DNA from: a virus
Taxonomy: Duplodnaviria; Heunggongvirae; Uroviricota; Caudoviricetes
Length of the DNA stretch: 13,872 nucleotides
Direction: 5' to 3' (one strand)
IMG/VR virus record: IMGVR_UViG_2874915312_000001
A program made the position numbers and the translations under genes. This document shows, one piece after another, positions 12,153 to 12,915 of this stretch. Position 1 is the stretch's first letter; each line of letters opens with the position of its first letter. The notes beneath the pieces were generated by a model that was given only the letters and a program-made list of their open reading frames with translations, ran no database searches and had not been told where the DNA came from.

Positions 12153-12217
12153 AATCCCGGCACCCGCTTTATAAGGTGCAGAGACAGTGTAACGTCCCGA
12201 AATTGCAGAATCAATAT
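12153..12217. repeat. 65-bp direct repeat, copy B
   Basis: See copy A. Similarity ends at 12217, exactly where the plus-strand toxin-antitoxin cassette begins. Confidence 0.6.
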
Positions 12218-12233
12218 ATTGTGCAGATATAAC
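12203..12233 (+). promoter_or_regulatory. candidate promoter/operator of the toxin-antitoxin cassette
   Basis: TTGCAG (12203-12208) and TATAAC (12228-12233) as possible -35/-10 elements, with a 10-bp palindrome CAATATATTG (12212-12221) between them. By eye only. Confidence 0.3.
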
Positions 12234-12254
12234 GATTTTGTTATGTTTTGCTGT

Positions 12255-12584
12255 ATGAACTACACTATCGAATACTACAGTGAAGAGGTCCGACTGGAGG
12301 TCGATCAGCTTCCATTGAGTATGCGTGCCAGATACCAGCATCTTGTTGAACGCATGAAGGTATACGGCAGCAATCTCGGAGAACCTCACACCAGCGCCTT
12401 TGGTGATGGGCTTTTTGAGCTTCGGATTAAAGGCAGCGATGGCATTGCCCGCGTTTTTTACTGCACACTGACAGGGAAGCGCATCATCATGCTGCACAGC
12501 TTCATCAAGAAAACTCAAAAAACTCCACCAGCTGAGCGTAAAAAAGCTGAAACCAGAATGAAGGAGGTTAAGCATGACTGGTAA
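12255..12584 (+). CDS. Gp49/HigB-like toxin (RelE/ParE superfamily)
   Basis: MNYTIEYYSEEVRLEVDQLPLSMRARYQHLVERMKVYGSNLGEPHTSAFGDGLFELRIKGSDGIARVFYCTLTGKRIIMLHSFIKKTQKTPPAERKKAETRMKE matches the Gp49-like (DUF891) pattern. The start is uncertain (ATG 12243 or 12255). Confidence 0.7.
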   Translation: MNYTIEYYSEEVRLEVDQLPLSMRARYQHLVERMKVYGSNLGEPHTSAFGDGLFELRIKGSDGIARVFYCTLTGKRIIMLHSFIKKTQKTPPAERKKAETRMKEVKHDW

Positions 12585-12882
12585 ACGTAACCCACCAATC
12601 ATGACACACGATGAAATGGCAGCTAAATGGATGGATGACCCGGCTTTTAAAGCAGAATACGACGCCATCGCCGACGAGTTCGCACTGCTTGATGAAATGC
12701 TGGCCGCACGCAAAGAAGCTGGTCTCACCCAGGCTGAAGTTGCTGAACGCATGGGTACCAAAGCAACCGCCATCACCAGAATGGAAAGCAATCTTGCCTC
12801 AGGTGTCAGCGGACCATCATTTGCCACACTGAAAAAATTTGCACGCGCAACAGGGAAAAAACTCCAGATCCGCTTCGTGTAA
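12574..12882 (+). CDS. XRE-family HTH antitoxin (HigA-like)
   Basis: 102-aa ORF with HTH LTQAEVAERMGTKATAITRME. Strong AAGGAGG ribosome-binding site; its start overlaps the toxin stop by 11 nt, the classic toxin-then-antitoxin HigBA order. Confidence 0.7.
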   Translation: MTGKRNPPIMTHDEMAAKWMDDPAFKAEYDAIADEFALLDEMLAARKEAGLTQAEVAERMGTKATAITRMESNLASGVSGPSFATLKKFARATGKKLQIRFV

Positions 12883-12894
12883 ATTTCCATTATC

Positions 12895-12915
12895 GCGCCG
12901 TTATTATGGCGGCGC
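12895..12915. terminator. GC-rich hairpin between the convergent cassette and minus-strand genes
   Basis: GCGCCG ... CGGCGC inverted repeat 13 nt after the antitoxin stop. No U-tract on either strand, so any terminator function is uncertain. Confidence 0.25.

Follow-up and report, generated by a model that had tools for sequence, protein, structure and literature searches.

A probable HigBA-type toxin–antitoxin cassette of a decaying lambdoid prophage, back to back with a C4-type antirepressor module

Introduction

Every Gp49-domain module studied up to a 2018 paper was an operon with the toxin gene first and an XRE antitoxin, and the Gp49-domain toxins have a long C-terminal helix. HigB1 of M. 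tuberculosis has been shown to be a ribosome-dependent mRNA endonuclease, with R68, R77, and K95 as catalytic residues. HigB2 and HigB3 of M. tuberculosis, also Gp49-domain proteins, are non-toxic on expression. The E. coli HigBAC system (Mets et al. 2024 preprint) consists of toxin, antitoxin, and chaperone, targets translation, and confers phage immunity.

The window analysed here is the whole stretch of 13,872 nucleotides of a virus of the Caudoviricetes (IMG/VR record IMGVR_UViG_2874915312_000001). The host prophage is lambdoid and decaying: an IS600 at approximately 13508 interrupts the first Rha-family gene, an IS66-family element lies at 2790-5429, and the gene for a DnaB-like helicase is broken into two ORFs. 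An intact relative, of the L008 type, has no IS600. Positions 12218-12906 are probably an autonomous type II toxin–antitoxin 'moron' of the Gp49-domain HigBA kind.

Results

Limits and insertion of the cassette

The cassette and its right neighbour comprise the following features.

12218..12906, plus strand: the entire inserted cassette, 689 bp, set by comparison with cassette-free relatives
12255..12584, plus strand: toxin gene, 109 aa, Gp49/HigB-like, RelE/ParE superfamily
12561-12567, plus strand: antitoxin Shine-Dalgarno AAGGAGG, 6 nt before the antitoxin ATG, read from the sequence
12574..12882, plus strand: antitoxin gene, 102 aa, XRE-type HTH (residues ~44-98) with an N-terminal extension
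12904..13077, minus strand: DUF4222 gene (Pfam PF13973, E=2.7e-14), with its stop codon TAA (12906-12904) supplied by the cassette end

The two plus-strand ORFs, their 11-nt overlap, the AAGGAGG, and the minus-strand neighbours are as originally predicted, and so is a later insertion. Cassette-free relatives join 12217 to 12907 with 2 bp between, which sets the insertion at 12218-12906; the Stx1a phage Stx1_14040 (L007), for example, matches 11873-12217 and 12907-13501 of the window around those 2 bp. The empty junction is present in 314 of 5426 E. coli genomes and the cassette at the same site in about 8, making the empty form some 40 times commoner. POCJ13 (L005) has only 12227-12917 in common with the window, and its genomic context differs. 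Prophages are thus shown to be polymorphic for a cassette of defined limits. The insertion is genuine but of an ordinary kind, and it left the neighbouring gene undamaged. The DUF4222 protein ends in ...APP here, as compared with ...APPAY or ...APPT in cassette-free relatives. The cassette sits at a transcription-unit boundary, with the DUF4222 stop codon on one side and the −35 of an isrK/C4-Rha module promoter on the other. The cassette does not always have DUF4222 on its right; in PhiR5_2 and POCJ13, the genes on that side gave no DUF4222 match.

An exact search of a species-representative genome collection with the left junction (41 nt) gave no match. A plasmid collection gave distant matches only (~71% identity), limited to the 3' end of the toxin gene and the antitoxin gene, on plasmids of Salmonella and Acinetobacter; within that collection, the cassette as such is not carried by plasmids. 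A stop-free frame of 524 aa (11574-13148) runs antisense to the whole cassette. It is not a gene; 17% of synonymous-codon shuffles of both cassette genes leave the antisense frame fully open as well.

Toxin and antitoxin

Profile searches bore out the predicted identities: the first protein is Gp49 (PF05973) with a RelE fold, the second an XRE HTH protein, and the toxin comes first as in HigBA. The toxin matches Pfam Gp49 over profile positions 2-90 of 90 (E=6.4e-26, 90.7 bits, cut-off 23.9), and PF05973 was found in 120 of 120 of the matches listed for its 3191 homologues. The AF2 model (pLDDT 92.1) shows a RelE/ParE fold, with the topology E-H-H-E-E-E-E-H and a long C-terminal helix. The best Foldseek matches are S. 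pneumoniae HigB (6af3/6af4) and M. tuberculosis HigB1 (7awk/7nbu), with TM scores of 0.71-0.77 to 6af3/6af4 and 7awk; YafQ, RelE, and YoeB follow. Identity to solved toxins is only about 20%. Three residues that do not vary across 39 sequences, R57, R66, and K85, align to R68, R77, and K95 of HigB1, and E55 and K89 align to E66 and K99. As HigB2 and HigB3 are non-toxic, toxicity of the protein in the window is not to be assumed. M1, Y3, I5, and Y8 are invariant among the homologues aligned, so the start at 12255 is correct. The NCBI pipeline annotates a toxin of only 76 aa in relatives; this is a mis-called start, because conservation extends over all 109 aa of the frame, N-terminal residues included.

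The antitoxin matches Pfam HTH_3 (E=4.9e-11), and its best solved relative is HigA (6af3_B), the partner chain in the S. pneumoniae HigBA complex that holds the best toxin match. About four residues extend beyond the HTH match at the C-terminus. Neither a SecB-like chaperone gene nor an antitoxin ChAD tail was found in the two-gene cassette. Homologues of the antitoxin and of the toxin come from contigs of matching lengths, which suggests that they lie on the same contigs. With dN/dS of 0.00-0.15 for the toxin and 0.04-0.13 for the antitoxin, the substitution pattern shows strong purifying selection on both genes. In the PADLOC catalogue, the cassette proteins matched no complete defence system; the toxin gave a partial match only, to the C-terminal RelE-like part of NsnC, and the antitoxin generic HTH matches. 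Near-identical proteins (97-98% identity) are already in public databases as 'type II toxin-antitoxin system RelE/ParE family toxin' and 'helix-turn-helix domain-containing protein', and the identity of the pair mostly confirms routine annotation.

Promoter, operator, and hairpin

The control elements proposed for the cassette are as follows.

12219..12224, plus strand: candidate −35 hexamer TTGTGC, from positional conservation, a weak consensus match
12229..12244, no strand: perfect palindrome ATAAC-N6-GTTAT, putative antitoxin operator, filling the promoter spacer and overlapping the −10
12242..12247, plus strand: candidate −10 hexamer TATGTT, from positional conservation
12895..12915, plus strand: GC-rich hairpin 3' of the antitoxin gene, its right arm overlapping the end of the DUF4222 gene

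The palindrome is kept in 50 of 50 related viral loci. It is the sole perfect copy in the window, where 0.23 matches at up to one mismatch would be expected by chance. We infer that it is the operator bound by the antitoxin. Among 22 distinct sequences upstream of the cassette genes in relatives, all have the TTG of the −35 at a fixed 4 nt from the operator, while the rest varies, and all have a constant distance from operator to ATG. The −10 hexamer is kept in 20 of the 22, with the ATG exactly 7 nt later; the other two have one base changed. Both hexamers are weak (7/12 consensus positions). A simple consensus promoter scan did not call the proposed promoters, and the proposal rests on positional conservation only. 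The 7 nt between the −10 and the toxin ATG vary in sequence and hold no Shine-Dalgarno; together with the constant spacing, this suggests that the toxin mRNA is probably leaderless. The GC-rich hairpin (RNA fold −14.4 kcal/mol, z=−2.6) is poor in U-tract, is kept in POCJ13 and PhiR5_2, and is a possible weak terminator.

The neighbouring isrK/C4/Rha modules

To the left of the cassette lie two tandem modules.

12186..12214, minus strand: putative module 1 promoter TTGATT-N17-TACACT, back to back with the cassette promoter
12103..12179, minus strand: isrK-type leader RNA of module 1, with a1/b1 target sequences and an intrinsic terminator
11991..12078, minus strand: C4 antisense RNA of module 1 (Rfam RF01695)
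11574..11936, minus strand: short Rha-family gene of module 1, 120 aa, own ATG at 11936 and GGAGG at 11949-11945
10717..11561, minus strand: module 2, whole, with promoter, isrK, C4, and Rha gene; a/b specificity differs from module 1
11523-11447, minus strand: isrK of module 2
11422-11335, minus strand: C4 of module 2
ATG 11280, minus strand: Rha gene of module 2, 187 aa, own ATG and Shine-Dalgarno

The module promoter is conserved in 8 of 11 aligned modules, the other three having variant promoters, and the Rfam isrK match begins 7 nt after the module 1 −10. isrK (RF01394) scores 61.8 bits in module 1 and 61.9 bits in module 2 (gathering score 50), and C4 scores 80.1 bits in both (gathering score 45). 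The isrK terminator of module 1 is a hairpin at 12122-12109 followed by a T-run, and its C4 RNA folds at −50.7 kcal/mol (z=−5.3). At the Rha Shine-Dalgarno, the sequence GTCAACGG (11955-11948) is complementary to the C4 loop CCGTTGAC (12034-12027). Each module has its a and b motifs in three places, and these co-vary across the 11 modules; in relatives, c4-a1b1 overlaps isrK. The module 1 Rha protein matches TIGR02681 (E=1.9e-10) and PHROG 995 (E=9.5e-55), and Pfam Rha at 28.9 bits, slightly below the cut-off. The sequence adjoining the cassette is an intact P1 immI-like RNA switch, in which each of the two modules would control its own Rha gene with a different specificity.

The modules share a direct repeat (11483-11561 and 12139-12217, 92% identity). 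The predicted end of this repeat at 12217 stands, while its length is 79 nt and not 65. It consists of the promoter and 5' part of the isrK/C4 RNA module, and an insertion cannot be argued from it by way of a lost Rha start; both Rha genes keep their own ATG and Shine-Dalgarno, and the upstream paralog has lost neither. The ATG and ribosome-binding site at 11577, described as retained by the downstream paralog, look instead like the leftover start of the gene normally next after a Rha gene; GGAGGTGCnCCnATGATCCGC recurs at 10709-10732. Nor is the minus-strand operon otherwise uninterrupted: isrK promoters and terminators occur within it at least twice, and its upstream end is cut by the IS600.

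Relatives and linkage

Linkage was surveyed in 50 viral contigs with a close toxin relative (72-100% aa identity). Both genes are intact in the same geometry in 47 of these loci; two others have lost the toxin start codon only, and in the last one both genes are broken by frameshifts and stop codons. An isrK/C4 module starts 32-45 bp upstream of the toxin ATG on the opposite strand in 43 contigs. Most of the remaining seven have the C4-like sRNA-Xcc1 within ~330 bp or what is left of the module promoter. At least three sequence types occur among the partner modules, and the outer flanks comprise at least seven right-hand and at least nine left-hand types, in 11 combinations.

The unusual point of the locus is this back-to-back placement with a C4-type antirepressor module in nearly all 50 contigs.

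Discussion

Alternative explanations

The original prediction held that the insertion had cut the 5' end, with start codon and ribosome-binding site, off a long upstream Rha paralog. A long stop-free frame does span the Rha gene through the repeat, NCBI calls such long ORFs in relatives 'Rha family' or 'ash family' proteins, and the translation of the stretch matches Pfam Phage_ASH. This reading is nonetheless already contradicted, and we regard it as highly improbable. In the window, as in each of six related loci (L001-L004, L006, and L007), isrK and C4 score 56-83 bits, and the three-way a/b complementarities co-vary among the modules. Substitutions in the stretch from the Rha ATG to the repeat fall evenly on the three codon positions (8/9/8, 6/5/5, and 5/6/7; dN/dS 0.6-0.9), whereas the Rha ORF proper has a coding-type pattern (6/5/17 and 4/4/17; dN/dS 0.12-0.16). 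The RNA matches and the missing codon-position bias argue that this stretch is RNA and not protein. The repeat ends at the same base in cassette-free relatives, and the annotated long-ORF starts vary by genome. A relative with the same arrangement and an annotated start to its long 'Rha' ORF does exist, E. coli A8; the start is moot, because its ATG sits in the toxin–antitoxin operator and the long ORF is no real gene. A common mis-annotation is corrected here: the long ORFs labelled 'Rha family' or 'ash family' beside the cassette are translated isrK and C4 RNA genes, and it is a translation of this kind that Phage_ASH matches.

A purely autonomous cassette leaves the near-constant C4-type linkage unexplained. 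The pair might instead be a working part of the antirepressor switch that influences prophage induction and not an independent passenger; the XRE protein or the toxin:antitoxin ratio would tune the divergent isrK promoter, or mRNA cleavage by the toxin would feed the translationally coupled isrK-C4-Rha circuit. We consider this rather unlikely. The linkage itself speaks for it, in that a module or its trace lies close by in nearly all contigs across several module types and 11 flank combinations, and the operator is at −50 to −65 relative to the isrK start. Mnt, which adjoins the ant operon in P22, is a loose parallel. Yet cassette-free C4/isrK modules are ~40 times commoner and look complete, POCJ13-type phages have the cassette away from the module, and gp49/gp48 of N15 is not beside the N15 antirepressor locus. 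The single operator copy overlaps the cassette promoter and not the isrK core promoter, no extra copies that might regulate the isrK promoters were found in the window, and the operator stands 14, 16, or 19 bp from the isrK −35 according to type, so that the spacing is not helically phased. Zero-distance linkage with recombination in the flanks could alone preserve the adjacency. It is improbable, too, that the cassette is a domesticated or decaying remnant, its first protein no longer toxic and the pair idle or only an autoregulated transcription factor unit. The insertion elements and split helicase gene of the host prophage, the non-toxic Gp49-domain toxins, the 76-aa annotation, and relatives with the toxin ATG changed to ATA are consistent with decay, but all family-invariant residues are present, including the equivalents of the catalytic triad, the full-length frame and N-terminal residues are conserved, and the comparison with strain A8 gives 0 non-synonymous changes at a dS of 0.53.

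Proposed mechanism and significance

For an autonomous toxin–antitoxin cassette, the toxin would be predicted to act as a ribosome-dependent mRNA endonuclease by analogy with M. tuberculosis HigB1, and the antitoxin to bind and neutralise it. As a dimer or in complex, the antitoxin would bind ATAAC-N6-GTTAT and repress the cassette's own promoter. A leaderless toxin mRNA set against the strong antitoxin Shine-Dalgarno may give antitoxin excess despite the toxin-first order; if so, this would be a simple answer to how a toxin-first operon attains that excess. If the antitoxin ceased to be supplied, whether because the prophage was lost or because an infecting phage shut off host transcription or translation, the toxin would be set free and would bring translation to a halt. 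The prophage would be stabilised, the infection aborted, or both.

The locus gives a clean anatomy of a phage toxin–antitoxin moron, with exact ends and a putative promoter with embedded operator, and puts on record the recurrent back-to-back linkage of a toxin–antitoxin subfamily with C4-type antirepressor switches. If the linkage is functional, it would connect toxin–antitoxin biology with the control of prophage induction. We offer only as a speculation of low probability that the C4/isrK antirepressor switches of enterobacterial temperate phages have a dedicated partner in this HigBA-like subfamily, which would couple cell stress or phage attack, by way of the divergent promoter, the XRE protein, or the mRNA-cleaving toxin, to the antirepressor circuit and hence to prophage induction. 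Such coupling would explain the retention back to back with at least three C4-type module types across many flanks.

Comparison with known systems

S. pneumoniae HigBA (6AF3/6AF4), M. tuberculosis HigB1 of TAC (7AWK, 7NBU), and A. baumannii HigBA2 share with the window a PF05973 toxin of RelE fold with a long C-terminal helix. Gp49-domain HigBA modules likewise have the equivalents of R68, R77, and K95, the toxin first and an XRE-HTH antitoxin second, and for S. pneumoniae HigBA the two proteins of the window match the two chains of one solved complex. The window toxin differs from the solved ones in its low identity, in being phage-borne, and in an mRNA that is probably leaderless. TAC/HigBAC has a SecB-like chaperone gene and a C-terminal extension of the antitoxin, and the cassette has neither. 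E. coli HigBAC is alike as a HigB/HigA unit in E. coli and shows that such a toxin can act in abortive infection, but it senses through the HigC chaperone, which recognises a lambda tail protein, and through the ChAD tail of the antitoxin, both absent from the cassette. The gp49/gp48 pair of phage N15, namesake of Pfam Gp49, is a toxin-first, moron-like pair with an HTH partner on the strand opposite its neighbours. It is far from the C4-like antirepressor locus of N15, whereas the cassette abuts a C4-type module. P1/P7 immI (c4-icd-ant) and Gifsy-1 isrK-orf45-anrP resemble the neighbouring modules and not the cassette. They have the same promoter, isrK/a1b1 leader with terminator, C4 RNA, Shine-Dalgarno targets, and Rha/antirepressor-type gene, and the heteroimmunity of P1 and P7 is the analogue of the two a/b sequence sets. 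The modules of the window differ from both in being a tandem pair in a lambdoid early-right region with Rha-family genes downstream.

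Gene layout and limits of the cassette

The pair at 12218-12906 is a real, intact and precisely bounded HigBA-like toxin–antitoxin moron of a known family. All neighbouring genes are on the minus strand, and the cassette itself consists of two genes:

12255-12584, plus strand: toxin ORF, 109 aa
12574-12882, plus strand: antitoxin ORF, 102 aa

These coordinates, the 11-nt overlap and the ribosome-binding site of the second gene (AAGGAGG, 6 nt 5′ of the antitoxin ATG) agree with the original prediction. The 524-aa stop-free antisense frame across the cassette (11574-13148, minus strand) is regarded as chance, since 17% of synonymous-codon shuffles are also fully open.

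In the Stx1a phage Stx1_14040 the pair is absent: its matches to the window, 11873-12217 and 12907-13501, are separated by only two bases. As it joins 12217 to 12907, the insertion/deletion difference is window 12218-12906 (689 bp). At the right end, cassette and empty site have 11 bp in common (TGGYGGCGCTT). The cassette also provides the DUF4222 gene with its TAA stop; in empty sites the gene ends ...APPAY* or ...APPT*. Shigella phage POCJ13 carries the cassette at 88% identity (window 12227-12917) in another genomic context, after the replication genes. Of 5426 complete E. coli genomes, 314 have the empty junction. The cassette occurs in 40 genomes, about 8 of these at the window's site. 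Insertion is the simpler reading, and the proposal of an insertion was right, although the argument then given for it, a lost Rha start, falls away (see below). A direct repeat ending at 12217 was confirmed; it measures 79 nt rather than 65 (11483-11561 and 12139-12217, 92% identical).

Toxin and antitoxin

The toxin covers the whole Pfam Gp49 profile (PF05973, E=6.4e-26) and matches PHROG 2523 end to end. A database search gave 3191 relatives; PF05973 is present in all 120 listed, which are mostly 109–111 aa long. In an alignment of 39 listed relatives M1, Y3, I5 and Y8 are invariant, and so the start at 12255 is right and the 76-aa toxin annotated in relatives is a mis-called start. The AlphaFold2 model built from this alignment (pLDDT 92.1, pTM 0.85) has the layout strand-helix-helix-four strands-long helix. 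Foldseek places S. pneumoniae HigB (6AF3/6AF4) and M. tuberculosis HigB1 (7AWK; ribosome-bound 7NBU) at the top (TM 0.71–0.77), followed by YafQ, RelE and YoeB. The antitoxin has an XRE-type HTH (HTH_3, E=4.9e-11), and among solved structures it is best matched by HigA, the partner of HigB in 6AF3. Both proteins are therefore what had been predicted, a Gp49/HigB-like toxin and an XRE antitoxin. In every Gp49-domain module studied up to a 2018 paper, the operon has the toxin gene first and the antitoxin is of the XRE type.

Compared with relatives at dS up to 1.8, dN/dS is 0.00–0.15 for the toxin and 0.04–0.13 for the antitoxin, so that strong purifying selection acts on each of them. In three related loci (L006, phage PhiR5_2, at about 4297-4299; L054; L055) the toxin start is ATA instead of ATG and the antitoxin is intact, which looks like inactivation of the toxin with retention of the antitoxin.

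Predicted expression signals

The 50 related loci have 22 distinct upstream sequences, in which the layout was compared. TTG at a fixed place 4 nt before a palindrome, the palindrome, TATGTT, a 7-nt gap and ATG remain constant while other bases vary. The palindrome (ATAAC-N6-GTTAT) is perfect in 50 of 50 loci, and this is its sole perfect copy in the window. The hexamer TATGTT, with one-base variants in 2 of the 22 sequences, overlaps the right half-site and is exactly 7 nt from the toxin ATG, with no Shine-Dalgarno sequence between. A consensus promoter scan of the window did not call the cassette promoter, and for this reason we infer rather than assign it: it would be a weak sigma-70 promoter, with the predicted antitoxin operator covering spacer and -10. 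The toxin mRNA would be leaderless or nearly so which, with the strong Shine-Dalgarno sequence of the antitoxin, would favour antitoxin over toxin. A GC-rich hairpin (-14.4 kcal/mol, poor U-tract) lies 3′ of the antitoxin gene.

The neighbouring isrK-C4-Rha modules

Module 1, the first of two tandem minus-strand units, adjoins the cassette; its promoter and the RNA-gene stretches of both units are as follows:

12214-12186, minus strand: predicted module 1 promoter TTGATT-N17-TACACT, within the repeat ending at 12217
11937-12217 and 11281-11577, minus strand: Phage_ASH or long-Rha-ORF spots over isrK-C4 RNA genes (likewise 3850-4512 in related locus L003 and 3006-3665 in L001)

By Rfam, an isrK/C4 pair occurs twice in tandem on the minus strand (isrK at 61.8 and 61.9 bits, C4 antisense RNA at 80.1 bits each), and a Rha-family gene follows each pair; six related loci (L001-L004, L006, L007) have the same pattern. 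The 79-nt repeat comprises the module promoter and the first part of isrK, whose match starts 7 nt after the -10 and which ends in an intrinsic terminator. Two short motifs occur three times per module, in isrK, in the C4 loops (as complement) and in the Shine-Dalgarno region of the Rha gene. They are TTTGCAC and GTCAACGG in module 1 and TTGGCGT and TCAACATAG in module 2; further modules have different pairs, matched within each module without exception. The tandem modules (10717-12217, minus strand) have different a/b recognition sequences and are heteroimmune in the P1/P7 sense.

The upstream Rha paralog had been thought to have lost its start codon and ribosome-binding site. Both Rha genes keep their own ATG (11936 and 11280) and Shine-Dalgarno sequence. 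The stretch between Rha ATG and repeat is stop-free, with codon-position differences of 8/9/8, 6/5/5 and 5/6/7 and dN/dS of 0.6–0.9; the values for the Rha ORF proper are 6/5/17 and 4/4/17, and 0.12–0.16. As this stretch evolves without codon bias, neither Rha gene has lost its start codon. A 24-nt junction, repeated at 10709-10732 where it starts the next gene, includes the ATG and GGAGG at 11577; the copy at 11577 looks like a remnant that came along with module 1. Copies of the 79-bp repeat mark the starts of both modules, 656 bp apart, and in close relatives (L012, L016, L057) module 2 alone adjoins the cassette; recombination between the repeat copies appears to alter the number of modules.

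Translated isrK-C4 matches Pfam Phage_ASH (PF10554) at 44.4 bits (cut-off 26), and NCBI annotates ORFs that cross the RNA genes as 'ash family protein' or as long 'Rha family' proteins. As the substitution pattern says that the stretch is not protein-coding, translations of RNA genes may form part of the basis of Phage_ASH. In E. coli C5 (L004, 3860-4310) and locus L019, an extra unannotated plus-strand ORF lies between isrK promoter and cassette; its CxC...CxH motif resembles a SWIM zinc finger. Inserted genes may accumulate at this spot upstream of the isrK promoter.

Linkage of cassette and module

Linkage was assessed in 50 viral contigs with a close toxin relative (72–100% amino acid identity). 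In 43, an isrK/C4 module on the other strand starts 32–45 bp upstream of the toxin ATG; in one, the module is 500 bp off, behind an extra insert. Five of the remaining six have the C4-like sRNA-Xcc1 about 330 bp upstream (four by Rfam scan, the fifth from its shared flanks) or a remnant of the module promoter; L041 was left out of the scan. Rfam sRNA-Xcc1 also lies directly upstream of antirepressor genes, the usual place of C4, in POCJ13 (L005, 1991-2074) and in L031, L035 and L039-L044, which suggests a C4-type regulator of antirepressors.

Among the adjoining modules at least three sequence types are represented, and the outer flanks form 11 combinations. Such recurrent adjacency, the one unusual feature of the cassette, could reflect functional coupling of cassette and module, which we consider improbable. 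Against direct coupling, far more genomes have working modules but no cassette, the single predicted operator overlaps no promoter other than that of the cassette, and the spacing to the isrK promoter varies (14, 16 or 19 bp). In phage N15, gp49/gp48 are away from the antirepressor locus, whereas the window cassette adjoins a C4-type module. Zero-distance physical linkage, with exchange solely in the flanks, may equally preserve the adjacency.

State of the prophage

Elsewhere the prophage carries the following features:

2790-5429, plus strand: IS66-family element; three ORFs (HTH_Tnp_1 transposase domain, TnpB_IS66, DDE_Tnp_IS66 transposase)
6010-6317, minus strand: cluster of four tRNA genes
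7315-8706, minus strand: DnaB-like replicative helicase, split into 134-aa N-terminal and 327-aa C-terminal domain ORFs
13508-13872, plus strand: IS600 (IS3 family), interrupting the early-right chain's first Rha-family gene

Window 8255-13872 is 100% identical to one IMG/VR contig. Three others (L008-L010) are 99.5–99.7% identical up to 13507 and continue without the element, which establishes that IS600 cuts the Rha-family gene; a 144-aa C-terminal ORF remains (13097-13531, minus strand; 235 aa in relatives). The split helicase gene, a single 466-aa gene in relatives, probably represents a pseudogene, a further mark of decay. By these sequence features the prophage is decaying, and the cassette is nonetheless intact.

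Function and comparison with known systems

In the favoured mechanism the toxin would act as a ribosome-dependent mRNA endonuclease, neutralised by the XRE antitoxin, which would also repress the operon; once antitoxin synthesis stops, toxin would be released. The pair may benefit the prophage through its retention, through abortive infection or through both. PADLOC matched the cassette proteins to no complete defence system. The neighbouring modules share their design with P1 c4/immI and Gifsy-1 isrK-orf45-anrP. In the profile alignment the proposed catalytic residues of M. tuberculosis HigB1, R68, R77 and K95, fall on R57, R66 and K85 of the toxin, invariant in the family; HigB1 K95A abolishes toxicity and ribosome-dependent cleavage. 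In E. coli, the HigBA unit of HigBAC confers phage immunity via a chaperone sensor, a component that the window cassette lacks.
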